A stretch of 64,000 nt of DNA from the NCBI RefSeq assembly GCF_023055435.1, contig NW_025964201.1, positions 2,542,001-2,606,000 of the forward strand, in the 5' to 3' direction. Shown here in pieces: positions 15,738 to 48,600 of the stretch. The position numbers and the translations under genes are program-made. The DNA is from Haliotis rufescens (lineage: Eukaryota). Below the pieces are notes generated by a model that did not search any database, had not been told where the DNA came from, and saw only the letters and a program-made list of their open reading frames with translations. Each line of letters begins with the position of its first letter. The stretch's first letter is position 1.

Positions 15738-18700
15738 TCAACATTCTGTGTTACCGCGTATGTACATATGCCCCCCCTCCAGGTGGTCGGAGATGTTGGT
15801 GTAGATGTTGTTGCTGCCATTGGTGTAAGTGTGGCTGCCGGTGTGACTGCCGGTGTGACTGCCGGTGTTACCGCCGTTGTTGCTGTCGGCGCTGCTTACA
15901 GTGTTGTTGCAGATGTTGGTGTCGGAGTCAGGACGCCCATCTGGGTCCGATGACTCGGAGATGTCACATGGTTCCAGTACATGGTCCACCCCGTGATCAT
16001 AGTAGGTATAAGTGGCATCTGTTTCAGCTCCGTTAGTTTTTCTTCTGCGTTTTACTATTTTGCTGAAAGAGAAGACAACATCTTTGAAATGTGACGTATA
16101 TTGGACATATGAATTATAAATATGTCATATAAATAACAACTAAGTTGAAAATATGATATAATGTTCATATGTCGTGCTTTCTACTTGCTGTTATGTCCCT
16201 GTTCCTGGACGAGTACATCACGATATCACTCACCAACAGACTACACTCAGAACAAACACAACAGCACCAACAGCACATGCCACAATCAGTGTCATCTTGG
16301 TCTTCCCTGAAAGATACAGATGCGGATAATTATTACGAAAAGTGGTTTTTCAATCAGACAATTTTCTTCAGATGTGGATCGTCTTTTTTTGGACTCTCCA
16401 TGCTACTGTGCGCACCTTGTGTATGTAGGGGGGCAATGTGTGGGGACGACGTAGTGGGGGGAGGTGATGTCGGTGATGTCGGCCCTGTACCTCCGTTGCA
16501 CGTGACTGTCAGGTTGGACACACCTGGAACATCAATCAGCGGAATCATTGCTTTGTATCTGCTTTTTAAAGGAAAATGAAAAACCCATAAAAATCTGTTT
16601 TCCGAGACACCTGAACGTACCTCTGACCTTCAGCCACACCTGTTGACCTTGCTTCCCATATGTTTGAAACGTCACCGTAAAACGTGAAACATTTTCCATC
16701 ACTGGCGTATTGTATACAAAATATCTGTGTGAGAGAGATTGCCAGATAGAGTTGTCTCCCTTCAGTGTTATGTTAGCTCTGACGCCGTCACGATGTCTGA
16801 AGAACAGTTCTAGTATCGTCACCGTCATTGACGTCCCTGTCACGTCACACTGACACGTGTTATATGAGTTCTGTGATTCGTATGGGTAATTGGAAGATGA
16901 AAGATACAGAGTAGAGTCTTCCGTGGAGGAGGTTGTGGTGCAGCTGCAGATATCTATGGGCGATTCTGTAAATATACAACCCGTCCATTTCAATCAGCGT
17001 ATCTCATGCAAACTAAACCAACGTGTCATGTTATTTGTAATATTTCCAAAAAATAATGGACATTAAATATTGGAATGAAGAGGTTGAAGAGTATTTCAGA
17101 TTTATCACAGCATGTCTGTTTGATGTGAGAGGTGAGGTGAGGTGGGGTGGGGTTTAACGTCGCGTTCAACATTATTTCAGTTTCGACGTGTGTCTGTGTC
17201 TGTGTGGCTGATTTAATAGTGCTACTCCACTGAGATACCACGCAGAAGTCTAACATGGATACTCCACTCAGATGAAGTTTTCTCCAATCCGACATGTATT
17301 TGTTTCATCTCCTTAATGCCGAACACCCACCAAGGTAACAACAAGTATCATCTTTGTTCTGTACCATCAACGTCTTTTGGAATGACACTACTAGCGGATC
17401 GAACCACCGACCTTCTACTCTCCGGACAGACGCTCTAGACTAGTTCACGGAGGAGAGCCTGATGTCGAAAAGAAAATTAACAAGAATATGATCCAGTATC
17501 TCAATAAGTGTAAATCTTACGAAGCAACGATCAACGGATTCTGGAAATACTATGAGACTCAGCACGTACACTCGAGGCGCTTTTAGACCGGGAGGTCGCC
17601 CTTCCCACCCAATAGATATAGGATGGTCATGTATCACTCATATGAAACATTTTATCTTGGTTATTCGTGTATTGATGTTTGAAAACTACCAACCGTTGAT
17701 ACACTGGTATGATAATGTCACCGTATATGACGTCGTATTTCCACACTTGTGAGTCAGCCAGAAGCTCCAGATGTCGTGGTGGCAGACCGACACTCCGACG
17801 CAGTTTGTTGTCAGCCCTTGTTTCTGAGTCTCCTGCAGATATTCACACGTGTCATCTTGTGTGACACATCCTGGTGACGTCTTCCTGTACAGGACGCGGA
17901 CCAGACGGATCCTGCCAGGGTGCCCGCACTCAAGCCTCACAGACCCGCGGGGCAGGTTGCTGCAGACCTCCTTCACCTCGACAGACCCAACTGCAATGTA
18001 AATTGAGATTATTTAGACCTGCTACACCTGGACAGGCCTACCTGCAATCTGAAGTGAGGTTATATAGACCTCCTTCACCTGGACAGATCCACATGCAATG
18101 TGAAGTGAGGTTATATAGAACTCCTTCACCTGGACAGACCCACTTGCAATGTGAAGTGAGGTTATATAGACCGCCTTCACCTGGACAGACCCACTTGCAA
18201 CGTGAAGTGAGGTTATATAGACCGTCTTTACCTGGACAGACCCACCTGCAATGTGAGGTGAGGTTATATAGACATTCTTCACCTGGACAGACCCACCTGC
18301 AATGTGAAGTGAGGTTATATAAACCTCCTTCACCTGGACGGACCCACCTGCAATGTGAAGTGAGGTTATATAGACCTCTTTCACCTGGACAGATCCACAT
18401 GCAATGTGAAGTGAGGTTATATAGACCTCCTTCCCCAAGACCGACCCACCTGCAATGTGAAGTGAGGTTATATAGACCTCCTTAACCTCGACAGACCCAC
18501 CTGCAATGTGAAGTGGGGTTATATAGACCTTCTTCACCTGGACAGATCCAACTGCAATGTGAAGTGAGGTTATATAGACCTCCTTCACCTGGACAGACCC
18601 ACCTGCAATGTGAAGTGAGGTTATATAAACCTCCTTCACCTGGACAGACCCACCTGCAATGTGAAGTGAGGTTATATAGACCTCCTTCACTTGGACACCT

Positions 18701-19387
18701 TAACGCTGTCAGCACGATGCGATGCAACGACATAATTGCACGCGCATATGATACATAAGATTAATTAATACCGTATATGTTACGATTCCAATATAGTGTA
18801 ATGCTAAATTGAAAGAACACATGCAAGCATTTTAATTTCTCAATCAAGAAAGATCAGTATTTTTAAAGAATTAAACGTAATATTGCAAAAAGGCAAATAC
18901 CAGAGTGGAAAACTATGATGGCTAACGTTCAAAACACAAGCCATGTGTGACATACGCCGTAAAATACCATCACTGTGAACATCACGGCTGGTGTTGCACT
19001 CAGCGAATCTTCTACTTGACATTTCAATAATGAGCCATTGTAATACATGAGTATGTACAGAAATGCGTCTACATGAGAAATATGCTGAAACTCATCGTCT
19101 GTGTTGTACAAGTGGCATATTATGTCACTAATCAACACGAGATACATACCGATTCGTAGTGGTCTATATCATAACTTCGAGCTGAATTGAGATAACAGGT
19201 TTGGCACTTTCTCTGTTAAATATCACAACTCGGGGTCACTGAAGACTAATGTCAAATTGTAGTGCCATCCATAAAAGATTCAATGACATCACACAGAAGA
19301 CACCTGTTCGTCAATCTGCAACTCACCTGCCACGAAACATCTGATGTAGCCCAGGATGAACAGAGTCTTCGCCCACAGTAGATGCAT
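15738..19387 (-). CDS. Gene 2: SUEL-lectin-like + CUB-like single-pass receptor (~402 aa; 6 coding exons: 19387-19327, 17990-17694, 16965-16621, 16523-16416, 16306-16234, 16062-15738)
   Basis: In-frame GT-AG joins (phases 1,1,1,1,2; 1209 nt). Signal peptide MHLLWAKTLFILGYIRCFVA, SUEL-like VCSN..LECGHPGRIRLVRVLYRK..VTLSYQC, CUB-like LYLSSSNYP..TCQCDV..VWLKV, P/T-rich stalk, TM MTLIVACAVGAVVFVLSVVCC followed by the basic stop-transfer KIVKRRRK, and tail with YTYY, YTNG, IYTNI. Confidence 0.85.
17129..17437 (-). mobile_element. SINE family B
   Basis: Similar to 988-1316; (CCTCA)n tail. Confidence 0.75.
17965..18698. repeat. 51-bp minisatellite (~14 units) derived from the gene 2 intron 1/exon 2 junction
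   Basis: The minus-strand unit TATATAACCTCACTTCACATTGCAG|GTGGGTCTGTCCAGGTGAAGGAGGTC matches the real acceptor TTTACATTGCAG|TTGGGTCTGTCGAGGTGAAGGAGGTC at 17990. Confidence 0.9.
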
Positions 19388-20592: not shown

Positions 20593-21640
20593 ACGGTTGC
20601 ACCTCCGAAATCGCTTCCTGACAGTGACGTCATCGTCGACAAATGCCTTAGGTCACAGGGTTAGTCGACAGGAGACTCAGGGCTCATGGAATCAGGGCTT
20701 TTAGATCATACAGAGGACAGCTATTGACAGCGCAACATCGTCGTCTGCGATTGAGATGGGCCCGGACTGTACGACGTTGGCAACGACGTGACTGGCAGAG
20801 GGTTGTCTTCACTGACGAAAGTCGATTCTGTATGTTTAGGGCTGATGGAAGACAACGTGTTTACCGCCGAAGGGGTGAACGAACGGCGGGGTGTTGCGTG
20901 CAGGAGGTCGTACCATATGGTGGAGGGAGTGTCATGGTGTGGGGAGGGATCTGTAGGCAGGAGAGGACACCGCTGGTCATCGTTAACGGAAACGTGACAG
21001 CTCAGCGTTACATGGATAACATTCTTCGTCCAGTTGTCCTACCATTTCTCCAACAGCAGCCACGTGGTGTCATTTATCAGCATGACAACGCTAGAGCCCA
21101 TACAGCCAGAATTGTCACTAACTTCCTCGCAGCCAACAACGTCAATGTCCTGCCGTGCCCTGCACGCTCACCCGACATGTCCCCCATAGAACACCTCTGG
21201 GACTTGATGGATCGTCGCGTTCGACAATGACACCACTCTCCAGCCAACCGGCAAGAACTGATGTTGGCCCTCCAAGAAGAATGGCGTCAAATCCCACGTG
21301 ATCTCATCAGACGACTGACTTTTTCTGTGCGTCGAAGAGTTTTTGCGTGTATTGAGGCATTTGGTGGTCACACACGCTACTAATGACTTGTTATTCAACG
21401 TGAGCGATTGTTTATGTACTCTGCCTATTGTCAATGATTCTTAAAGCTCGAGTTTTGTACCACACCCAACTTTGGGGGGCTCTGACGTCATTCTCGGTCG
21501 CGGTATGATTGTCATTTTCAGTGTTGATTATGTTGATATATTGATCTTCTCAATACATTTCACTTCATGCAAGTATGTTTTGTTGTTTTCGAGCAAGAAT
21601 GATTACAAACTCTGGTAAAGTTTCTTTTGGACGTCAGTTT
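20593..21640 (+). mobile_element. 5'-truncated Tc1-family transposon, DD34E pseudogene
   Basis: ORF 20724-21230 has FTDESRF, GGGSVMVWGGI, QHDNARAH and SPDMSPIEHLW, then a premature stop; right TIR TGGTAAAGTTTCTTTTGGACGTCAGT. Confidence 0.88.
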
Positions 21641-23395: not shown

Positions 23396-24370
23396 CTCAT
23401 TTTATCTAATCCCTCACTCAGCCGTGCCAATTTACACTTGTCAGAGGGGTACATAAAGTACGTGATCTAGACTTCCAGTTATCAGACTTTCATTTTGTGG
23501 AAGCCTCGGTGGCTGAGTGGGTTAGATCGCTGACTTTGTGTGCTGGCGATTAGGTGCCTACTATGGCAGTGTGGGACTCAACCCACATAAGTGCTGGAAT
23601 CTGTACTTTAAGGAGAAAGTGTCATCCCAATACAACTTTTGTTACATGTGACAACTTTCTAAATTACATTGTGTATTCCATATCTCGATGTGTTATTGTT
23701 TCAGAAAATGTGGGAACCTTTTTAGGGTAACACTTCAATGTCCTTTGTATATTCCAATATGGTTGCGACTTTTCATTACGCCCGTGATTGTGTGAATGTG
23801 TGAATGTGTCTGGGTTCTGTAGCAGTTACAGTTATACTTTCATTCATTAATCTGATCCCGTAAAACTTCGTTTCAAATATAATAACACACAAGATCATAA
23901 GTATTTCTAAAATCTAGAATTCAACTTATTCTAGTTCATTTCATTTTATCCACCGAGCTTGGTGTACATATCCAAGTGTCATGACGACATGAAGTCAGTG
24001 TCATGATGGTCACTTGACCGGAAGTAGTATTGAAGGACTGTGACCTTCATCTCAGTTCCGGTAACGTGACATATGCACGTGGTCTTCGTCTCTTGTGTAC
24101 CGGCGCCAAGTGGCTAGTCTGATGAGCCAAGCTGCAGGGTCATGTCAGTCCCCGGAGGAAGGACCGTCCAGCTGCAGACATAAACAGTCGCATCTGACAC
24201 CGCGGAGAACCAGCAGATCGTGCATGGGAGGGTTGTGGTTCTCACGTTTGAGCATCACACATGGACGGTATGCCCTGGGAGGAACGTCTTTATCCATCAT
24301 TTCAGTTGGCTACCGTTTGTCACAGAGTGTGGCACCGCAAGTAGCATCTCTAGTGCCCCGCACGCGGGAA

Positions 24371-25352: not shown

Positions 25353-28300
25353 CTAGACAAACATATTTTCAGGTGTGGTATTCCTGAATTCCGAGTTTTG
25401 GTCACTTTGGTGAGGATTGGTCGGCAGTTCTTCAAAGTTAGCATTCCCGTCCAGCTTTCTGTAGTCATGGTCGCCATCTTGGCTGTCACAGATGTCCAGG
25501 CGCTGGTAGGTGTTGCTGTCTGAGTCCTCTGCCATGTGTTCATGAAACGGCACTTCTGATTGGTCAGGTGGTTCAATCACGTGATCAAAGTGGGTGTACG
25601 TGTGCTCGTTTGTAGGCATGCTTGCCGTCGCCTTACGGTTACAACAGCATCTGGAATGCTGGATTACTTTGCTGAAACAGAAGTAAGGAATAGAAACTCT
25701 TAGACGTCACACATGATTGTTTTCCTGCGAATGGTTGTCAATAATTGTTGTCAATAAGTGGTGAGTCTTGTTTGACCCGTGTTCTAGTTGTATAACGGCG
25801 TGAAAGCTTCATGTGGGAGGAAAAACCAGATGTGATGCAGGTATTACACTTTTACCGCTTTGTGAAACCCACGAACACCTGTATGGTGCTCACAAACCTA
25901 AAACCTACTCAGGTCGAACCGGGATTCTGACCCACGATCCTAGATTTCTGGTACCCTAAGGGACACACATGAGCATGTTAATAGACAGTTACCGTTCAGT
26001 AGCTAAACATGTCGTTACATCCTGGAGTATGCTACTTACAAATACACGACTGCTGCAACCAGGAGGAGAAGGCCTATGACAGCCACTGCTCCAACGACAC
26101 TCCCTACTATCACGGCAGTGTCTTCTGAAATCGTTACATAAACTGTCTACATCAAAGCGGTAATTTTCAACATGCTCTTGCAGGGTGTGGGTTANNNNNN
26201 NNNNNNNNNNNNNNNNNNNNNNNNNNNNNNNNNNNNNNNNNNNNNNNNNNNNNNNNNNNNNNNNNNNNNNNNNNNNNNNNNNNNNNNNNNNNNNNNNNNN
26301 NNNNNNNNNNNNNNNNNNNNNNNNNNNNNNNNTTGACGTTTCAAAGGTAAAATGTTAAACAGTTTGTCAACAGATTTAATATTACACGTTTGTCATCACG
26401 AGTGTCTTTCATTCAATACCTGCTCTGTTGGGTTACCCCCAGTGAGATGAAGTCCCCGGTGCCTGATGCTGATTACAGGAAGAAACTGAACTAGGGAGTT
26501 TGACCTGCTCAAAGTATGTCATCGTTCACTGAAGGCGTTGATCGTCGACCGGTGTGGTCGATCATTATAGGCAGCGGTAAACAACATTCACTCGAATATT
26601 TACTTATCTAAGTACAAAAAGTTTATTATCAACTTACCTTTGACGTTTGCAGGTGGTTTTAAAGACGATAGTGTGTGTGCAGGTGCACCTCCACTGCACG
26701 TGACTGTCATGGATGCTGCACCTGCCAATGTTTTATTAGTTACTATCGTTATGACGCATTGATCAACCATTCCTCCAGTTTAATTAAAATTAGATCTTAG
26801 TTCTCGCTACCGCCCCAAAAAAACAACATCTGAGGACATCCCATTGCAGGTCATGTCAGAACGACCTTTCATCTGACCAATCAGAGCATCGCTTATCAGA
26901 TCATGAAAATGACAATTGGAATGTGATTTGTTATCGTGCAACCTTGAAAAAACACACACATGGTATTCCGAACGACAGTTATGTCTGTATTCATACAATC
27001 TAGACCATCTGTTTGCCATTCCAGAATGTGAGAGTATATGTCAAAGCGCAGTCGCCAGTTTGAAACTCGTACCGTAGAGCTCGATTAAGCTGCCTTCTGA
27101 TTGGCTATTGTCGACTTCTTGTTAGTCATTCCATTGGTCGGTCAAACTTCGCGAAAGGTCGGTCTGACGTGACCCCTAATGGGATGTCCTCAGATCTTCG
27201 TTTAGTGGTAGCGAGAACTAAGATCTGATTTCATGAAATTCCTATTCCACGCGCTGTAAACGTCAACACATATCTGCCCAACACAGAGAGGTGATGCAAC
27301 TACATAAGTTCTAGAAATGTTACATCACAGTCTGTCTCGGACGCTTAACTCTTTTGTGAAATCCCCGAGTATGGATATGGTGCTGACAGGCCAAGGATCA
27401 TAATTGGAAAGAATTTGGGATTCGAACCCGTGAACCACGGATACTTACACAAGGAATATCAGTACCTTCCATCGCCGTGCCATAAGTAGCAATGTACATA
27501 TAAATGCATATTATACATGTAACACAGTGATGTATTGTGCGGAACAAGAATTGTTAGGTTTGTTTGTCAGAGAACAGGTTTCTACACTACTATACCTAGT
27601 GTTTGTTTGTTTGTTGTTTAACGTCGCACTCAGCAATATTCCAGCTATATGAAGGCGGTCTGTGAATAATCGACCAGACAATCCAGTGATTGACATCATG
27701 AGCATCTATCCACGCAATTGGGATACGATGACATGCATCAAACAAGTCAGCGAGCCTGACCACCCGATCCCGTTAGTCGCACCTTACGACAAGCATAGTC
27801 GTTTTTTTACGGCAAGCATGGGTTGCTGAAGACCTATTCCACCCCGGATCATCACGGGTCACTATACCTAGTGAACAGTGTAACAAAGTAAATACACATT
27901 CACCTACTTTCTATCTTTATCCAGGCATGTTGACCTATTTTCACGTTAGCAGCAAGACTCAGGTGTAAACTGTCCACGCTGTCCATTGCTTGAGTATTGT
28001 ACACAAAGTAGTGATCAGGGTGGGAGTTCCACAAAGAGTTTTCTCCCCTTAACGTCATGGTGGCTCTGTCACCCTCCCTGTGCCTGAAGAACAGTCCCAG
28101 GATGTACACGTTCATGGCCGCGCCCACGACGTGGCAGGCGCACGTGTTGCTGGTGTTGAGAACACCACGTGGGTAGTTGGGAGTTGCGAGGTACAGGGTA
28201 TAACCAGCTCCAGAAGAAACCGCTGTGTTGCTGCAGATATCTAAATAGGGATCTGGAATTGAAGACAATAATAATAATAATGAGTGTCAACCAAGCGAAG

Positions 28301-31300
28301 TGCCATATCAAATCGGCCAAGACTCATTTTTTAAAGGAGAGGCTATCTGAACGACCACTGCATCGAGTGTATGTGCAATTTGTTGAGAAGATCAGCAATC
28401 CTGCAGAGTCCTTTGCTTGGATGAAGTCGTCTGGACTGAAAAGTGAAACAGAAGGCTTTCTGTTTGCTGCTCAGGACCAGTCACTTCCAACTCGAAACCG
28501 TCAATGTGTGATTTTGCATCAAAATATGAATATGAAATGTAGATTATGCAATTAATTTAATGAGACTGTCCAACACATTGTCAGTGGGTGTCCAGCTTTG
28601 GCACAGACAGAATATCTTAAGCGACATGACGGGGTGGCTCGATCATTTTATTACCGTCTTCGCCATGCTTGTGGTTTTGACACAGAGGTCCACCCATGGT
28701 ACGACCCGGAATATGAAGAGGGCATCATGGAAAATGATGAATACAAAATTCTTTGGAATAGGCCCATTGACAGCCTCAGCCTCTGCATTTTTTTTATTTT
28801 AATCTGTAAATAATAATAATAATGAGGAAAGGAAAAGGAATTCATTGATAATGAAACGTCTGTGAATTTGACAATGTTACTTCTTACATCATATGAAAGA
28901 ACGTATCATAATCTAGACAAATGTCCTGGTCTGTGTACAGCAAGGGATAGGAGACCTGGTGGTAAGCAGCCAGTCACACCGTGAAACACACGTACCCGTC
29001 ACACACTCATATGACAGTGTCACGATATATGACGTTGTGGGTCCACACGTGTCAGTCAACCAGAAACTCGAGATTCCCTGCAGGCAGGATGAAGCCCCTT
29101 GGCAGTCAGTCCGCAGCCCTTGTTTCTGAGTCTCCTGCAGGTATTCACACGTGTCGTCCTGTGTGACACATCCTGGTGACGTCTTCCTGTACAGGACGCG
29201 GACCAGGTGGATCCTGCCAGGGTGCCCGCACTGCAGGCTCGTGGACGTCTCGGACTGATTGCTACATACATGCCTGGACAACAGTTCACCTGAAACACGG
29301 TGGAGTCGTTTTGAGTTTGTTTGTTGAGTCCACTAAAATACAAATATGTCTCGGTATCACTGTCTAGGTGTTATACACATATGTGTCTGTATAACTGTCT
29401 TGGTGTTGTCAAACTGATATACGGGGCGGTCGGGTAGCCTAGTGGTTAAAGAGTTCGCTCGAAGACACGGGTTCGATTCCCGACATGGGTACAACGTGTG
29501 AAGCCCCTTTCTTGTGTCCCCCGCCGTGATATTACTGGAATATTGCTAAAAGCGGCGTAAAACCATACTCACTCACTCAAACTGATATGCACTAATGTTA
29601 TAAAGTGTAGTAACATCTATAAAAACATGAGGGTTGAGACACACAGGCAAGACGCCGGCATCCCAATGGCGCTCCCTTTCTTGCTGATCTGTTTCTTAAT
29701 GCTCATGAATCAGAATTTCTGCTCGGATCAAAATCGCAAGGGAATTTGCCCAAGAAGTAACATAAGTGTCGCCGGGTATACATTTAAAACACGTATTTTC
29801 ACATGACTTAGCTCTCTCTGTCCGTTTACGTACTCTTCATCTCTTACTCCTACTCCTGATTGTCTGACCAGCTGTATCTCGTGCACATACCCGGGGTGTG
29901 ATGTGGACACTTTAAATTGTCACTTTTTGTCACGCCACAGCCGAGGGAAGACCTTCTTGCTCCCTCGACTCAACATCAATTCATATTGATGCCATTTATA
30001 TCTTTTACAGATTTGTACCCTTATCTATCTGCTTTCTTTATGGTACGCTAGTTGATAGAAAGGTAACGCGATCGTAGAAACTAAATCATAAATGTAATCA
30101 ATTGTGAATATTCTACTCCATTAAAAGGCATCGCGTTGCACGAGATTACCAATTCACTGTATGCATGTCCTATGTTAATCATGCATATATTATATTTAGG
30201 AGATCAACATACTGTGTTTTCAATGTAGAGCTAGGTTACCTGTAGATTTAACCCCACTAAATTGAATTTGGAACCGAACGCGCAGCGTGAGGCTTCAAAT
30301 GTTAAATTTAGCGCGGTTAAATCTACAGGTAACCTAGCTCTACATTGAAAACACAGTATGTTTATCTCCATTCTACCATGACTAAATAAAACGCGAACTC
30401 TTTGATGTTAGCAAATATACTGAGTGAAGCGGCATTGGTTGAGTTCAGTGTTTTGAGTGGGTTATCGATCTGAATTACGGAATCACCGAACAAAATGTGG
30501 CGCTGTATATACTCAAGCAGTTTGTTTACACCGTAATACTTCACTGGAACATATGACAGGCATTGAAAGCATATAAGCACGGCAACTTGCTAAGCTAACA
30601 TGAGGTGGGCATCCCTTAAGAAAACAAAGCAAGCTTTGCAAGGCTTTCGCTCTACATCGCAAACGATATGACGTCACAGTCGTATATAGAAAAGCGCCAA
30701 AATTCCAAGCTCTCTGTTGTCTCCAAAACGTAAATACATTCAACACGTCCCATTTTAATTCTGGAAACCCAAAAGTCCAGAAACTCTACGGTCTTTACCG
30801 ACTCTCGGTCAAAGGTATTTACAAAATTAAACATGCTGTTTTCATGGGAACATACCAAGGAAGAAAAAAATTAAAAAAAATTGTTAAAAAACTCAATATT
30901 TACACTTTCTCGCCCATGGGCCTGCCCATGGGCGAGAATATGTTCCATTACTCAAAATTCATGTTTTTGTTTGGCAAATACATTAAATGTATTTATTCAA
31001 GTATCATGACACAAAATTTAACTCATTTTAACTTAATTCAACTATTTTATAGCGATATTGAAATATTTCGCCCATGGGCGAGAAATAGGTTTGGCCCATG
31101 GGCGAGAATATGATCCTTTACTTAAAACTCATGTTTTTGTTTCGCAAATACATTAAATGTAGTCATTCAAGTATCATGACACAAAATTTAACTCATTTTA
31201 ACTTAATTCAACTATTTTATAGCAATATTGAAATATTTGGCCCATGGGGGAGAAAAAGGTTTGGCCCATGGGCGAGAATATTTTCCTTTGCTCAACAGTT

Positions 31301-34300: not shown

Positions 34301-36019
34301 CCTACTGATAACATCCTTATGTATTCACATGAACGCCACACTGATACCGCCCCTATGTATTTCCAGGAAAGCTCTACTGATAGTGCACCTATGTATTCAC
34401 ATTAAAACCCTACTTATACTGCCTCTACGTATTCACATAAAAACCCTACTGATATCGCCCCTATGTATTCACATGAACGTTTTATTGATACCGCCCTTAT
34501 GTATTCCCATAAAAGCAGTACTGATACCGTCCTTATGAATTCACATGCAAGCCCTACTGATACTGCCCCTATGTATTCACATGAACGTTCTATTGATACC
34601 GCCCTTATGTATTCCCATAAAAGTGGTACTGATACCGTCCTTATGAGTTTACATGCAAGCCCTACTGATACCGCCCCTATGTATTCTCATGAACGCCATA
34701 CTGATACCGCCCCTATGTATTCCCAGAAAAGCTCTACTGATAGTGCACCTATGTATTCACATTAAATCCCTACTGATACTGCCTCTACGTATTCACATGA
34801 AAGCCCTACCGATACTAACCCTATGAATTCACATGAAAGCCCTATTGATACTGTCTTAAGTATTCACATAAAAGCCCTACTGATACCGTCCTTGTGTATT
34901 CACATGAAATTCCTACTGATACCACTCCTAGGTATTCACATGAAAGCCCTACTGATACTGCCCCTATGTATTCGGATAAAAGTCATACTTATACCGTCTT
35001 TGTGTATTTACATGAACGCCCTACCGATACCGCCCCTATGTATTCGGATAAACGTCCTACTGATACCGTCCTTGTGTATTCACATGACAGCCATTCTGAT
35101 ACCCTCCCTATAAATTCACATGAAAGCCCTACTGATACTGCCCCTATGTATTCGGATAAACGTCCTACTGATACCGTCCTTGTGTATTCACATGACAGCC
35201 ATGCTGATACCCTCCCTATATATTCACATGAAAGCCCTACTGATACTGCCCCTATGTATTCGCATGAAAGACCTACTGATACTGCACCTATGTATTCACA
35301 TGACAGCCATTCTTATACCCTCCCTATATATTCACATGAAAGCCCTACTGACACTGCCCCTATGTATTCCCATGAAAGAAACCTAATGATACTACACCTA
35401 TGTATTCACATGAAAGCCCTACTGATGCTGCATCTATGTATTCACATGACAGCCCTACTGATACCGTCTTATGTATTCACATGAAAGCCCTACTGATACC
35501 GCCCTTATGTATTCACATGAAAGTACTGTGCAGGTGGTTGTAGGAAGGGATGATAACTGCCAGGTCTACCCTCTGTTGATGGATTGTTTACATTAGTTGT
35601 GTTTTTCCTGATTTGCTGTATTCCCGGATAAGACCTCCTCGGTCTGATGTAGTTTACACCCCGCTTGTTGACGACGTGTACGTCGTGTTGATGTCATTGA
35701 TAGCATGGGCGTATCGATTAGTGAAGACACCGACAGACGAAACCAGTCAACTAGGATTGTATAGATAAAAAATAGTTTGCAACACCTTCATAGCTGATAC
35801 GAGTACTGGCGACTAAATTAACAACAAACGAGTGTATTCGTTACATTTGACACTCATAACTACACCGACATCCTGCATCTGTAGCGTACAGCTACTTGCA
35901 ACAGCAACATCTACCCTCGACAGTTTCTACAAGCAACATGTTAGATTCCTCTACTACTCACCCAGTGACAGGCTTGTGCACAGGCCGAGGATAAACACCA
36001 CATTCGTCCATACAATCAT
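25353..36019 (-). CDS. Gene 3: SUEL-lectin-like + CUB-like single-pass receptor with ITAM-like tail (~394 aa; 6 coding exons: 36019-35962, 29289-28996, 28252-27908, 26721-26638, 26124-26040, 25671-25353)
   Basis: In-frame GT-AG joins (phases 1,1,1,1,2; 1185 nt). Signal peptide MIVWTNVVFILGLCTSLSLG is homologous to that of gene 2 (W..FILG). The CUB-like exon is 345 nt, as in gene 2. TM AVIVGSVVGAVAVIGLLLLVAAVVYF, juxtamembrane CCC, and tail YQRL-x11-YRKL. An extra small exon could be hidden in the N-gap at 26195-26332. Confidence 0.85.
26787..27231. mobile_element. MITE with long imperfect TIRs
   Basis: AAATTAGATCTTAGTTCTCGCTACC..CTGAGGACATCCCATT / AATGGGATGTCCTCAG..GGTAGCGAGAACTAAGATCTGATTT. 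Confidence 0.78.
27600..27861 (-). mobile_element. Family C repeat, near full length
   Basis: Reverse complement matches 52500-52767; (AAAC)n tail. Confidence 0.82.
28268..28823 (+). mobile_element. R4/Dong-like RLE non-LTR retrotransposon fragment in gene 3 intron
   Basis: SFAWMKSSGLKSETEGFLFAAQDQSLPTRN..CRLCN*FNETVQHIVSGCPALAQTEYLKRHDGVA..ENDEYKILWN (CCHC knuckle + RHD motif); flanked by (TAA)n on both sides. Confidence 0.8.
29423..29578 (+). mobile_element. tRNA-derived SINE family A
   Basis: A box TAGCCTAGTGG, B box GGTTCGATTCC, (ACTC)n tail. Confidence 0.85.
30199..30369. repeat. Foldback palindrome / hairpin MITE
   Basis: AACATACTGTGTTTTCAATGTAGAGCTAGGTTACCTGTAGATTTAACC and its exact reverse complement around a partly paired centre. 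Confidence 0.85.
30912..31281. repeat. Tandem duplication of ~175-bp AT-rich unit bounded by CCCATGGGCGAGAATA motifs
   Basis: Two near-identical blocks; the palindromic CCCATGGG recurs six times; probably subterminal repeats of a DNA transposon. Confidence 0.75.
32235..32324 (-). mobile_element. SINE family B head
   Basis: Minus strand CCGTGGTCTAGTGGTAGAGCGTCCGCCCGGAGAGGGGAAGGTAGGGGTTCGATCCCC. Confidence 0.7.
32665..35525. repeat. 36-bp minisatellite (~79 units) in gene 3 intron 1
   Basis: ATTCACATGAAAGCCCTACTGATACTGCCCCTATGT in tandem, with recurring higher-order variant blocks, stops and 1-nt indels. Confidence 0.95.
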
Positions 36020-39027: not shown

Positions 39028-40013
39028 CACTCTTCAAAAAAGAAAACGCACGGGTGGATTTTTAGGAAATGTGTTGTACATAATAAAGTCGATATATTTC
39101 ATTTAATATCATTGATACAAATGTGAAATTCTTGAGCTCGATAGTCACATGTTGTCGTTGTACAAAGGCATTGAAAACTGTTCATTGTCACGACACAAAA
39201 GGCCACAAGGTTGCGCTGAAATCAGTATCTCGTGTGACCGCCCCGGGCAGCAATCACGACTCAGCATCTCCTCGGCACTGACTGGATAAGTGTACAAATT
39301 CTGTCCTGCGCCATTCTGCTTGTAACGCGTTGGCCAGTTGTGGGGGTGTCTGCGGCGTGTTCTGACGTTGACGTTCACATCGATCGAGTACATCCTAGAG
39401 GTGTTCGATTGGGTTGAAATCTGGAGATCTCGACGCCAGGGCAAGCCGTTGATGTTGGCATTATGAAGGTAGTCTACCGTGACACGAGCTGTGTGCTGTA
39501 GAGCGTTGTCCTGTTGAAACAGCTTCCTCTGAAGGTGAGGTTGAAGAATTTGATTCATGTAGCGATTTGCTGTCAAATTTCCCTGAACCACAAGCAGGTC
39601 AGATCTTGTGGTGTAGGATATGCCCCCACCCCAACTGTGTGTATCGGTCACAAAGGCGGCAAATGGTGCTGTGGTGGACGTTGAAGTGGCGTGCAACAGA
39701 AAACTGCGATTCCCCTCTTTGGAGGTCTCGGCATTTTCGAACTTGAAAAATGTTGACAATAATTATTGAATGACAAATTATTGGCTTATGCTTGCCTTTT
39801 GCTTTACTGTTTTCCTCCCTGACATTTTTGAACAAGTGTGAAAAAAATGCCGTTTAAGACATTGCAAATCGACAATGGCTGCGTTTTGACGCACCGTCTG
39901 TCGAATATCCGGCCACCAACATTTTCGAATAACATATATCCAATTTATAAACCGGATTTTTTGTGTAGTCCATGGACTACATACTACCTGTGCGTTTCTT
40001 TTTTTGAAGAGTG
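39028..40013 (-). mobile_element. Internally deleted Tc1-family transposon
   Basis: TIRs CACTCTTCAAAAAAGAAAACGCAC / GTGCGTTTCTTTTTTTGAAGAGTG with TA on both sides; transposase remnants WGGGISY..GNLTANRY..FQQDNA..HTARVT. Confidence 0.88.
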
Positions 40014-42631: not shown

Positions 42632-45600
42632 TCAGCAAATACTGTTGTTCAACTCGAGGCGTGAAGATGTCTCATATATGTCATTATCAACCATATCAAC
42701 ACTGTCAGCAGCTGTCGGCGTGAGGTTTGGGTCCGTGTCCGCTGTCTGGACATTGTCGTACATGTTGTTGTTTGATCCCGTGTCATACAGGTCATTGTCA
42801 ACCATCTGTACTTTACTGTGTGGTTTGACCACAGACTGGTCAGGGTTTGATCCCGTGTCATACAGGTCATTGTCAACCATCTGTACTTTACTGTGTGGTT
42901 TGACCACAGACTGGGCAGGGTTTGATCCCGTGTCACACAGGTCATTGTCAACCATCTGTACTTTACTGTGTGGTTTGACCACAGACTGGGCAGGGTTTGA
43001 TCCCGTGTCATACAGGTCATTGTCAACCATCTGTACTTTACTGTGTGGTTTGACCACAGACTGGGCAGGGTTTGATCCCGTGTCATACAGGTCATTGTCA
43101 ACCATCTGTACTTTACTGTGTGGTTTGACCACAGACTGGGCAGGGTTTGATCCCGTGCCATACAGGTCATTGTCAACCATCTGTACTTTACTGTGTGGTT
43201 TGACCACAGACTGGACAGGGTTTAATCCCGTGTCATACAGGTCATTGTCAACCATCTGTACTTTACTGTGTGGTTTGACCACAGACTGGGCAGGGTTTGA
43301 TCCCGTGTCATACAGGTCATTGTCAACCATCTGTACTTTACTGTGTGGTTTGACCACAGACTGGGCAGGGTTTGATCCCGTGCCATACAGGTCATTGTCA
43401 ACCATCTGTACTTTACTGTGTGGTTTGACCACAGACTGGGCAGGGTTTGATCCCGTGTCATACAGGTCATTGTCAACCATGTCTACAACACTAAACCCCA
43501 TCAGATCAGATGGAGCATACGCTGCGTCAGGTGGGTTAGAAGGTCGACAGAAGCGTGACTGGCACAACTCAATCGTGTCTGCTGCGCCAGGCATGGTCTC
43601 CGAGTTTCCCAATGTTACCATCATCACACTGCCTATGTCGGATACGTGTTCCTGTTCGTCTGTGGACGGGATGTCGAGATTATTGTAACTGATATCGTCA
43701 CGGCCCGTCTTCATAGAATCTGGTTTGTCATCTCCGTGTGACGTGACAGCTTTGTGCCTGAAACAACATGACGTCATATTTCATACAGCGCAGGCCTTGA
43801 TCAACATCGTTCATCGTATTTGCCATAGCTTGGTACATTTTGGTAAAGATATAATTGATGTACATTTTTGTGTATAGAATTCGTAAATACATTTGTACTT
43901 CGACTAATATGAGTAGGCACGTCGTAGTGCATCTTCTGTACACACTTTAGATGGGAAACACTATCAATTAAGTTATGTATGTTTAGAATATCAATATGAG
44001 ATATGATTTTTTGAAATCCGAGGAACATGCTTGCATGGCTATAAGGATGATGGTGATGGTGATGACAACGACGGCAGCGACGAAGGCGGAGACGACGGTG
44101 ATGAGAGGTGGGGTGTTGTCTGCAAGGGAATATAGGTAGTTGCTCTTTGACTTTCACCTTGATAACGACATTACGATGAACAAGAAAACGAGATGTATTG
44201 ATACGAAGCGTGAAGAACGCGGCGTGTCAGCCTTAGGTGGGAAGAGTGTCGTAGGTTAGAGAAGTTCCCTACTGTGGGGCGTGGGGGGAGGGGCACGGGT
44301 GGCCCAGTCGTCTAATTTGCCGCGATTTGCTGTGCAGAGTTGCGTCCCTTGGGCACGCCAGAAACCTATGATCGTGGGTTTGAATCCCGGGTTCGCCCCG
44401 ATTGTGTTTCTAGGTTTGTCAGTACCATACCCGTGTGTCTGGGTTTCACGTGCATCATCTCGGGCTTTCCTCCCACATTAAGCTGACACGCCGTGATATG
44501 ACTGGAATACTGTTAAAAGCGGCGTTAAACCAACTCACTCACTCCCTACTTTGGTGTGTTCTACTTGCACTGAATCATAATCAGGATGAATGCAAACCAA
44601 CGACCAGTGGATCCGGAGGCGGATGAGTGACAACGTCTGTTCCCTGACGTGGGGTGAGGGGGGAATACAAGCCGTGCCCCCATCGTTATGTCTGTTCCCT
44701 GACGTGGGGTGAGGGGGGAATACAAGTGGTGCCCCCATCGTTATGTCTGTTCCCTGACGTGGGGTGAGGTGGGAATACAAGCCGTGCCCCCATCGTTATG
44801 TCTGCTCCCTGACGTGGGGTGAGGGTGGGAATACAAGTGGTGCCCCCATCGTTATGTCTGTTCCCTGACGTGGGGTGAGGGTGGAAATACAAGCCGTGCC
44901 CCCATCGTTATGTCTGTTCCCTGACGTGGGGTGAGGGTGGGAATACAAGTGGTGCCCCCATCGTTATGTCTGTTCCCTGACGTGGGGTGAGGGTGGGAAT
45001 ACAAGTGGTGCCCCCATCGTTATGTCTGTTCCCTGACGTGGGGTGAGGGTGGGAATACAAGTGGTGCCCCCATCGTTATGTTTGCTCCCTGACGTGGGGT
45101 GAGAGTGGGAATACAAGTGGTGCCCCCATCGTTATGTCTGCTACCTGACGTGGGGTGAGAGTGGGAATACAAGTGGTGCCCCCATCGTTATGTCTGTTCC
45201 CTGACGTGGGGTGAGGGGGGGGGGGGGGGGGATACAAGTGGTGCCCCCATCGTTATGTCTGTTCCCTGACGTGGGGTGAGGGTGGGAATACAAGTGGTGC
45301 CCCCATCGTTATGTCTGTTCCCTGACGTGGGGTGAGGGTGGGAATACAAGTGGTGCCCCCATCGTTATGTCTGTTCCCTGACGTGGGGTGAGGGTGGAAA
45401 TACAAGCCGTGCCCCCATCGTTATGTCTGTTCCCTGACGTGGGGTGAGGGTGGGAATACAAGTGGTGCCCCCATCGTTATGTCTGTTCCCTGACGTGGGG
45501 TGAGGGTGGGAATACAAGTGGTGCCCCCATCGTTATGTCTGTTCCCTGACGTGGGGTGAGGGTGGGAATACAAGTGGTGCCCCCATCGTCATGTCTGTTC

Positions 45601-48600
45601 CCTGACGTGGGGTGAGGGTGGAAATACAAGCCGTGCCCCCATCGTTATGTCTGTTCCCTGACGTGGGGTGAGGGTGGGAATACAAGTGGTGCCCCCATCG
45701 TTATGTCTGTTCCCTGACGTGGGGTGAGGATGGGAATACAAGTGGTGCCCCCATCGTTATGTCTGCTCCCTGACGTGGGGTGAGGGTGAGAATACAAGTG
45801 GTGCCCCCATCGTTATGTCTGTTCCCTGACGTGGGGTGAGGGTGGGAATACAAGTGGTGCCCCCATCGTTATATCTGCTCCCTGACGTGGGGTGAGGGTG
45901 GGAATACAGGTGGTGCCCCCATCGTTATGTCTGTTTCCTGACGTGGGGTGAGGGTGGGAATACAAGTGGTGCCCCCATCGTTATGTCTGCTCCCTGACGT
46001 GGGGTGAGGGTGAGAATACAAGTGGTGCCCCCATCGTTATGTCTGCTCCCTGACGTGGGGTGAGTGTGGGAATACAAGTGGTGCCCCCATCGTTATGTCT
46101 GCTCCCTTACGTGGGGTGAGGGTGAGAATACAAGTGGTGCCCCCATCGTTATGTCTGTTCCCTGACGTGGGGTGAGGGTGGGAATACAAGTGGTGCCCCC
46201 ATCGTTATGTCTGTTCCCTGACGTGGGGTGAGGGTGGGAATACAAGTGGTGCCCCCATCGTTATGTCTGCTCCCTGACGTGGGGTGAGGGTGGGAATTCA
46301 AGTGGTGCCCCCATCGTTATGTCTGCTCCCTGACGTGGGGTGAGGGTGGGAATTCAAGTGGTGCCCCCATCGTTATGTCTGCTACCTGACGTGGGGTGAG
46401 GGTAGAAATACAAGTATCGATGTGACCGTGAAGCCTGCTCCCTGACGTATGTCTGGCTTGGAATACAATTGATGCGCCTACCGTTATCCCTGTCCCCTGA
46501 CGTGGGATGTGGGGTATCTGGGGATGTCAGGCTGGAGTTCAGGGCCGTCCATGTTGATCCTGACGGAACGGTTGTACCCGTAGCTGTAGTCTCGGTGCTG
46601 TAGACATCAGTGGGTTCATGGTTTGTTGCAGAGTCAGTTTTCCCTGTCGATGCTGTCCCACTGTTTGCTGTTACTGATACTGTCTCGGTCGTTGTTGTAC
46701 CACTGTTTGTTGTTACTGATGCTGTTTCGGGCGATGTTGTCCTACTGTTTGCTGTTACTGATGTCGTCTCGGTTGTTGTTGTGCTGCTGTTTACCGTTGC
46801 TGATGGTGATGGTGATGCTGATGATGCCCCACTACTGCTGGATTCAGACGAGGAATCCGTGGATGTCGGTCCGTTTGATTGAGAAGATGGTGCCAGTGTT
46901 GACGTCGTTCCACCTTACAATTACACATTGGTAATAATTTGCCGACAGCTGCTTTATCACAGGTATTTTGATGGTGGAAAGTACTCGTGATTAACCCAAT
47001 GCTAGAGTCTCAGCTCATAATTCTTCGTCGGTCTAAAGGGAAACTGTTAAAATTGATTCGACTTACCTTATATCTACAAAACTAAGATGTACCCGAGACG
47101 GGCCATAATGCCCTCATTGTGTTCTACAGACACTGCACACATCGCCAAACTGAAACATTTCAGGCGAGTACATTGGCCTTCATTGCAGTAAATCATCGCC
47201 AGGGGGTCACATACACGTAGCTCGTCAGGGGATCTTATACATGTAGCTCACATCGTCAGGGTGTCTTATCAATGTAGCTCACATCGTCAGGGTGTCATAT
47301 CAATGTAGCTCACATCGTCAGGGGACATTATATACGTAGCTCACATCTTCAGGGGGTCATATATATGTAGCTCACATCTTCAGGGGTTCATATACATGTA
47401 GCTCACATCGTCAGGGGGTCATATACATGTAGCTCACATCGTCAGGGTGTTATATACATGTAGCTCACATCGTCAGGGGGTCATATACATGTAGCTCACA
47501 TCGTCAGGGTGTTATATACATGTAGCTCACATCGTCAGGGGGTCATATACATGTAGCTCACATCGTCAGGGTGTTATATACATGTAGCTCACATCGTCAG
47601 GGTGTCATATAAATGTAGCTCACATCGTCAGGGTGTTATATACATGTAGCTAACATCGTCAGGGGGTCATATACATGTAGCTCACATCGTCAGGGTGTCA
47701 TATACATGTAGCTCACATCGTCAGGGTGTCATATAAATGTAGCTCATATCATCAGGGGGCCATATACATGTAGCTCACATCGTCAGGGGGTCATATACAT
47801 GTAGCTCACATCGTCAGGGTGTTATATACATGTAGCTCACATCGTCAGGGGGTCATATACATGTAGCTCACATCGTCAGGGTGTCATATACATGTAGCTA
47901 ACATCGTCAGGGGGTCATATACATGTAGCTAACATCGTCAGGGTGTCATATACATGTAGCTAACATCGTCAGGGTGTCATATAAATATAGCTCATATCAT
48001 CAGGGGGCCATATACATGTAGCTCACATCGTCAGGGGGTCATATACATGTAGCTCACATCGTCAGGGTGTTATATACATGTAGCTCACATCGTCAGGGGG
48101 TCATATACATGTAGCTCACATCGTCAGGGTGTCATATACATGTAGCTAACATCGTCAGGGTGTCATATAAATGAAGCTCATATCATCAGGGGGCCATATA
48201 CATGTAGCTCACATCGTCAGGGGGTCATATACATGTAGCTCACATCGTCAGGGTGTTATATACATGTAGCTCACATCGTCAGGGGGTCATATACATGTAG
48301 CTCACATCGTCAGGGTGTCATATACATGTAGCTAACATCGTCAGGGTGCCAAATACATGTAGCTCACATCGTCAGGGGGTCATATACATGTAGCTCACAT
48401 CGTCAGGGGGTCATATACATGTAGCTCACATCGTCAGGGTGTTATATACATGTAGCTCACATCGTCAGGGTGTTATATACATGTAGCTCACATCGTCAGG
48501 GGGTCATATACATGTAGCTCACATCGTCAGGGTGTTATATACATGTAGCTCACATCGTCAGTGGGTCATATTTATATAGCTCACATCGTCAGGGTGTCAT

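Follow-up and report, generated by a model that had tools for sequence, protein, structure and literature searches.

Does the cytoplasmic tail of an abalone receptor carry a working ITAM? The question is raised by a 64,000-nt stretch of Haliotis rufescens DNA (the window), in which a sequence-only reading had noticed a pair of tyrosines in the tail of one predicted protein, that of gene 3, and proposed an activating or phagocytic receptor. ITAM-type receptors are already known in oyster, Drosophila and Hydractinia. For molluscs, ITAM-Syk signalling has been reported in a handful of oyster receptors of the Ig and C-type lectin kinds, and in the literature outside subscription journals and supplements we found no description of an abalone SUEL-CUB receptor family or of an abalone ITAM. 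Here, we suggest that Y344 and Y359 of gene 3 form a non-canonical ITAM, which would dock Syk or Shark and give an activating signal; the probability of this reading is put at about 0.55. It draws on the observed sequence, its splicing, the homology of paralogue tails and the presence of Syk- and Shark-like exons, together with predicted folds and a predicted topology. If it is true, the SUEL-CUB family with its ITAM-like and ITIM-like tails would constitute a new ectodomain class, and a testable set of activating and inhibitory receptors in a farmed, disease-prone gastropod, whose natural spacings of 8, 9, 11 and 12 would offer a direct test of Syk versus Shark on long and short ITAMs. The motif would be ordinary if it is a sorting signal instead.

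Gene 3 and its predicted product

Gene 3 lies on the minus strand. In its six-exon model (Table 1), each of the five introns is bounded by AG/GT, and the translation is exactly P0002, the NCBI 'uncharacterized protein LOC124112376 [Haliotis rufescens]' of 394 aa. The last two introns are skipped in contigs of four of four public runs (joints 25671-26040 and 26124-26638), in which the motif exon is joined in frame to the transmembrane exon. Exons 2, 3 and 6 are covered by contigs of another set of four public runs. It should be noted that one run is common to both sets, that the contig comparison took in exons 2-6, and that the runs, with no RNA on record, were taken as RNA from the intron-skipping joints; such contigs cannot rank expression. 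There is also a second AG acceptor at 25650, 21 nt into exon 6, whose use would drop KVIQHSR. This segment is absent from the H. cracherodii model P0001, and the acceptor at 25671 is used in 4/4 runs.

Table 1. Coordinates of gene 3, its tail motifs and related features (window positions unless a contig is named).
Feature	Position	Strand	Remarks
Gene 3 exon 1	35962..36019	-	start codon and predicted signal peptide; tblastn 21/21 to P0002
Gene 3 exon 2	28996..29289	-	SUEL/RBL-fold domain; run contigs, Pfam, VIA-align
Gene 3 exon 3	27908..28252	-	CUB-fold domain; run contigs, VIA-align
Gene 3 exon 4	26638..26721	-	last strand of CUB region and short stalk
Gene 3 exon 5	26040..26124	-	predicted transmembrane helix, zero charged residues
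Gene 3 exon 6	25353..25671	-	cytoplasmic tail, 105 aa + stop; predicted disordered
Juxtamembrane CCC (C299-301)	25641..25649	-	candidate palmitoylation site; translation
YTHF (Y314, YxxPhi; in TYTHF)	25587..25598	-	third tyrosine motif; aligned to EEPTY of paralogue D
ITAM-like pair YQRL-x11-YRKL, Y344-L362 (Y344, Y359)	25452..25508	-	translation of exon 6
C-terminal MFV	25356..25364	-	translation; same in P0001
SUEL tract common to genes A and B	29114..29232	-	119 nt, 5 mismatches; gene-conversion-like
Lone CUB-exon fragment	24012..24209	-	in-frame stop (pseudo-exon); between genes 3 and 2
Paralogue B (gene 2)	15738..19387	-	SUEL-CUB-TM; tail TYTYYDH, IYTNI, HMYIRG, no ITAM pair
Paralogue C (gene 1)	661..9046	-	SUEL-CUB-TM; tail TTYSTV (ITSM-like), VHYTSI (ITIM-like); start read by eye
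Larger SUEL-CUB tandem clusters	G000:C445:40.97-41.19 Mb, 47.15-47.38 Mb; G000:C423:2.67-2.78 Mb		P0015 search

The product is predicted to be a single-pass cell-surface receptor, in which a signal peptide is followed by domains of SUEL/RBL and CUB fold, an uncharged membrane helix and a tail of 105 residues. In the AlphaFold2 model, based on a 13-row alignment with a mean pLDDT of 65.8, two beta-rich domains precede a helix (residues 262-296) and a disordered tail (pLDDT <50 from residue 296). In VIA-align comparisons with this model, residues 21-119 match the SUEL/RBL fold (Z 7.3-8.0, rmsd 2.9-3.2, 85-88 aligned), best of all the ADGRL3 lectin domain (Z 8.0, rmsd 3.1, 88 aligned), and residues 124-236 match the CUB fold, with C1s CUB2 on top (Z 10.0, rmsd 2.9, 106 aligned). 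Pfam gave PF02140 (SUEL) on exon 2 with E 3.6e-4, below the cut-off, no match for the CUB exon (exon 3) and no EGF match among exons 2, 3 and 6. Whole-model Foldseek matches were weak and mixed (best SIDT1, E 4.9e-5, rmsd 23.5), and the domain-level VIA-align comparison was preferred. The nearest Atlas models are EVA1C clusters (TM 0.47-0.48), the Atlas feature scores, all <=0.81, being leads only; the two-SUEL layout of EVA-1/EVA1C is not found in gene 3, where a CUB fold (Z up to 10.0) follows the single SUEL domain.

YGR, DPC and KYL are the sugar-binding motifs of rhamnose-binding SUEL lectins. The alignment of gene 3 to CSL3 is weak (E 0.087); in it, the CSL3 stretches ANYGR, GDPC and YKYL correspond to VLYRK, TDTC and TSYI in gene 3, so that LYRK, DTC and SYI stand in place of the three motifs. 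To judge from the residues, the gene 3 ligand is probably not rhamnose. No charged transmembrane residue occurs in 15/15 proteins checked; therefore, no adaptor of the DAP12/FcR-gamma type is implied.

Tyrosine motifs in the tail

The minus strand from 25508 to 25452 translates as YQRLDICDSQDGDHDYRKL, with EDSDSNT immediately before it. Both the translation and the spliced exon 6 bear out the YxxL-x11-YxxL pair of the sequence-only reading. The pair is spliced behind the transmembrane exon, which together with the predicted topology (helix, then disordered tail) places it in the cytoplasm. The juxtamembrane CCC and the hydrophobic C-terminus MFV, which had also been pointed out, are present as well, the former 8 residues past the exon boundary, after KVIQHSR, in the splice form of the public runs. 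By consensus, MFV is presumably class II PDZ-like. Besides the pair listed earlier, the tail contains a further tyrosine motif, TYTHF.

As claimed, the pair falls within the extended ITAM definition YxxL/I-x(6-12)-YxxL/I, and its Y-Y distance of 15 equals that of Y934/Y949 in Draper, both as given in 10.1101/198986; this equality argues for the ITAM reading. The claim of upstream acidic residues stands for positions -4, -6 and -7 but not for -3, which is Ser. The D/E three residues before the first tyrosine in the consensus of PMC6994640 is thus absent from gene 3, and the spacer of 11 falls outside the classical x(6-9) spacing of PMC9546547. The spacer outside x6-9, the Ser at -3 and the variable spacing in the family described below count against the ITAM reading.

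How often would such a pair arise without selection? An x6-12 YxxL/I pair appears in 199 of 200,000 shuffles of the 105-aa tail, which, together with the spliced cytoplasmic exon, supports the ITAM reading. The raw six-frame translation of 174 kb of the region yields 112 pattern matches in 175,016 residues (0.064 per 100 aa), and because of this background the pattern counts only through a real cytoplasmic exon.

The main rival is a set of YxxPhi sorting signals, whereby YQRL, YRKL and YTHF, when unphosphorylated, would engage AP-2 (through its mu subunit) or a related adaptor, so that the receptor and its ligand would be internalised or retrieved to the Golgi. YQRL is identical to the YxxPhi peptide from TGN38 that served for AP-2 binding in PMC3655264, and all three tail tyrosines fit YxxPhi, as they do in 0.4% of tail shuffles; both points weigh against the ITAM reading. 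Sorting signals need no fixed spacing, in keeping with the variable spacing of the family. We regard this explanation as unlikely in view of the paralogue tails described in the next section, and it should be noted that a sorting role is compatible with an ITAM role, since both could operate at once.

Family tails and shared lectin exons

A single orthologue of gene 3 was found, H. cracherodii P0001, which is 96% identical and has an identical motif. Word-based protein searches and the representative search, both limited in sensitivity, returned no distant orthologue, and a genome search with the tail exon returned the exon itself plus one match at E 0.64. No variant lies within the motif in four runs, among the table rows listed, or in P0001. 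None of the 7 variable tail sites (from P0001, plus two changes in run X12) falls in the 19-aa motif (P=0.21); with a single orthologue this close, conservation tells little, a shortfall that is listed among the points against the ITAM reading. These results and the six-frame background would also suit a decayed or chance pattern with no selected function. However, the intact spliced reading frame, the homology to a selectively conserved pair in paralogue D and the excess of YxxL/I/V across the family make this explanation highly unlikely.

On this motif, the family is more informative than the orthologue. Six paralogues lie head to tail on the contig, A (gene 3), B and C within the window, and the other three, D, E and F, further down. 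The gene 3 tail is homologous to the D tail (0/2000 shuffles; 1/2000 against H. rubra P0009), and the two tyrosines of each pair coincide in the alignment (TYQRL..DHDYRKL in gene 3, IYTGL..DHEYGKL in D), which favours the ITAM reading. The D tail reads IYTGL-x9-YGKL, with a third tyrosine inside the pair, and its spacer of 9 agrees with the x6-9 consensus. Between the window's species and H. rubra, the D pair is conserved at 15/17 positions versus 37/71 in the rest of the tail (Fisher p=0.005). This again argues for the ITAM reading, while the fact that the linker between the D tyrosines is conserved along with the motifs argues against mere sorting signals. On the other side of the balance, the gene 3 tail is not significantly like those of B, C or P0015, an H. 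rubra y-type tail (134-727 of 2000 shuffles), and neither B nor F has a pair in the tail. Paralogue E corresponds to P0006, a protein in which YAEL, YAKV and YQEI occur along a long tail.

Of the 48 tyrosines in nine family tails, 21 are followed by L/I/V at +3, where 6.9 would be expected, and an x6-12 pair occurs in 3/9 tails, a number reached in 0/20,000 shuffles; both excesses favour the ITAM reading, with the proviso that paralogues are not independent. The spacing of the pair varies among x9, x11, x12 and, for an upstream pair, x8.

A genome-wide search with P0015 gave 77 exon-level matches to the SUEL-CUB family, including the larger clusters of Table 1. Among the 20 C445 tails in the matches listed, at least one pair is present in 12, and overlapping x8 and x12 pairs in 10; TYxxL-x8-YNxI-x12-SYGHI, then YxN-type sites, is the order in 10/20 tail stretches. 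The last tyrosine is kept in 21/21 aligned rows, with the upstream partner missing in 3. The frequency of pairs and the constancy of the last tyrosine support the ITAM reading. Several family matches in the larger clusters contain stops, and some C445 tail matches are probably pseudogenes. The YxN sites of the C445 clade, PSYVNS and DPYINA, which we take by consensus to be Grb2-type sites, occur with a retained acidic linker, and the two features point to phosphotyrosine signalling rather than sorting. The C445 linker SEDGDEHSY resembles SQDGDHDY of gene 3, with a weak profile score (28/1000 shuffles, one of 8 tails tested). This weak likeness, the lack of significant likeness to B, C and P0015 and the lack of a pair in B and F are points against the ITAM reading.

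The distal site has an H-x-Y in common: DHDYRKL in gene 3, DHEYGKL in D, EHSYGHI or EHNYGHI in the C445 clade and P0015, and VHGYAKV in P0023. Could the distal tyrosine (DGDHD-YRKL) then be the working element, as a hemITAM-like or single-SH2 site, with Syk bridging two receptors or with SHP2 as partner, and YQRL secondary? H-x-Y is the most constant feature of these tails, the last tyrosine outlasts its upstream partner in the aligned rows, an SHP2-like gene, assigned by eye, is present in the genome, and oyster hemITAM lectins are reported to use Syk (PMC13027682). However, paralogue D retains the upstream YxxL/I, with its +3 residue, in two distant species, the upstream YxxL/I is also present in the majority of the C445 copies, and we consider a distal site acting by itself distinctly unlikely.

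Within the 119-nt SUEL tract of A and B, 37 residues were compared. Genes A and B, in the window's species and in H. cracherodii, show 0-1 differences among them, whereas the counterparts of B in H. rubra and H. asinina depart from B at 5-8 positions; the A and B CUB exons are only 61% identical. C and D have 186 identical nt of SUEL tract with CUB exons 70% identical. Likewise, C (window 7644-7943, -), D and E (L001, L003) share 156-186 nt of identical SUEL-exon sequence and have three different tails, D and E being 96% and 93% identical. The domain trees are mostly unresolved, and D and E of the window's species form no supported clade. On the basis of tract identity, the shared SUEL tracts look like gene conversion, and B, the partner of gene 3, has neither ITAM nor ITIM.

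Several other features were observed. The D tail frame continues past EDTV on C423 (L002 4426-4800), while the copy on C281 (G000:C281:6165-6500) stops there; the H. rubra counterpart of D ends EDSV. C281, a contig of 35.6 kb on which the SUEL-CUB exon pair is doubled, might represent an alternative haplotype. At window 18025-18699 (-), the start of the gene 2 SUEL exon (GSVQVKEV) is tandemly repeated in the intron upstream. A fourth membrane-protein gene occupies window 42635-46914 (-). Its stalk exon (46914-46357) is rich in Ser/Thr, the open frame 44153-43986 contains a transmembrane exon, and a long exon for the tail carries ISYNNL (ITIM-like) and 11 MVDND(L/I)(Y/C) repeats. P0006 and P0025, members of the SUEL-CUB family, likewise end in MVDND(L/I)Y, but a search for SUEL and CUB exons of the fourth gene up to G000:C423:2636000 found none. 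Read by eye, Tc1/mariner transposase-like remnants lie at 2787-3383 (+), 20652-21227 (+) and 39148-39762 (-), and a non-LTR retroelement-like remnant at 28160-28810 (+).

Candidate partners and known systems

Would the abalone have a kinase to read such a pair? The genome gave 47 SH2 matches. At G000:C112:26903584 there is a Syk-like N-SH2 exon, whose best PDB match is SYK (E 1.1e-14), and more SH2 pieces follow downstream, the stretch read ending before the kinase exons. From G000:C605:21382570 onward, SH2, ankyrin-like, SH2 and kinase pieces were read by eye in series; among the matches of the kinase piece, ZAP70 and SYK rank directly below a single chain labelled EGFR, which fits with Shark. 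Thus, candidate Syk and Shark partners are encoded in the genome, and their presence supports the ITAM reading. The first tandem-SH2 candidates had turned out, by eye, to be Csk-like and SHP2-like rather than Syk or Shark, and others PLC-gamma-like. Syk ligands do not usually have basic residues at +1/+2, and those of gene 3 are counted against the ITAM reading.

We infer that clustering of the receptor would lead a Src-family kinase to phosphorylate Y344 and Y359, that Syk or Shark would bind the doubly phosphorylated pair through its tandem SH2 domains, and that the docking would give a signal of presumably activating sign, with a possible immune or phagocytic output. That oyster CgIgR (ITAM) and hemITAM C-type lectins are reported to recruit Syk (PMC6994640, PMC13344425, PMC13027682) favours the ITAM reading. 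However, tandem-SH2 proteins other than Syk and Shark may bind tyrosine pairs at various spacings, according to PMC12132298, and consequently dual docking alone would be no proof of an activating signal.

Among the oyster receptors, CgIgR (ITAM) and CgCLec-HTM/CgCLec-TM1 (hemITAM; Syk-ERK) resemble gene 3 in that they are molluscan single-pass proteins with the motif in their own tail. They differ in having Ig or C-type lectin ectodomains and functional data; in CgIgR, moreover, position -3 is E and the spacer is shorter (EGDYTELGQCDPETPYEKL; PMC6994640). The Alr receptors of Hydractinia, as described in PMC9546547, are like the abalone family clustered invertebrate receptors with divergent tails, some with ITAM and some with ITIM, in a genome with Syk, Shark and SHP homologues; their ectodomains are Ig/Fn3-like, and their ITAMs were identified by x6-9, a spacing that the pair of gene 3 exceeds. 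The rhamnose-binding SUEL/RBL lectins (CSL3, SUL-I), the latrophilin lectin domain and EVA-1/EVA1C have a fold in common with the first domain of gene 3. Unlike the SUEL/RBL lectins and EVA-1/EVA1C, gene 3 has one SUEL followed by a CUB and degenerate CSL3 motifs.

The ectodomain of Draper, CED-1 and MEGF10 is an EMI/EGF array, unlike the SUEL and CUB ectodomain of gene 3, in whose tail no NPxY motif was found. Nevertheless, Drosophila Draper (CED-1/MEGF10 family; Src42A-Shark pathway) is, like gene 3, a single-pass protein with its own ITAM-like pair at a Y-Y distance of 15; an intact ITAM is needed for binding of the Shark tandem SH2, and the Draper tail has 13 tyrosines versus three in gene 3 (10.1101/198986). 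For Shark, the kinase of Draper, there is the Shark-like exon series in the abalone genome.

Then, is there a wider parallel in vertebrates? The paired receptors (Siglec, LILR/PIR, KIR) are encoded by tandem genes with near-identical lectin exons and ITAM-like or ITIM/ITSM-like tails, and gene conversion is one of their features. The abalone family shows the same layout of tandem genes, near-identical lectin exons and ITAM-like or ITIM/ITSM-like tails, with conversion-like tracts. It differs in that no charged transmembrane residue occurs in the 15/15 proteins. A paired layout is suggested by C (ITIM/ITSM-like) and D (ITAM x9), which share their 186-nt tract but have CUB exons only 70% identical; the partner of gene 3, B, is without ITIM. 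Tentatively, gene 3 might be the activating member of a SUEL-CUB immune-receptor family in tandem clusters, where conversion would keep the ligand-binding exons alike and the tails would be ITAM-like, ITIM/ITSM-like or multi-tyrosine. Such a family, which we think possible though short of probable, would be a gastropod paired-receptor system, independent of KIR, LILR and Siglec, with Syk or Shark set against SHP2.
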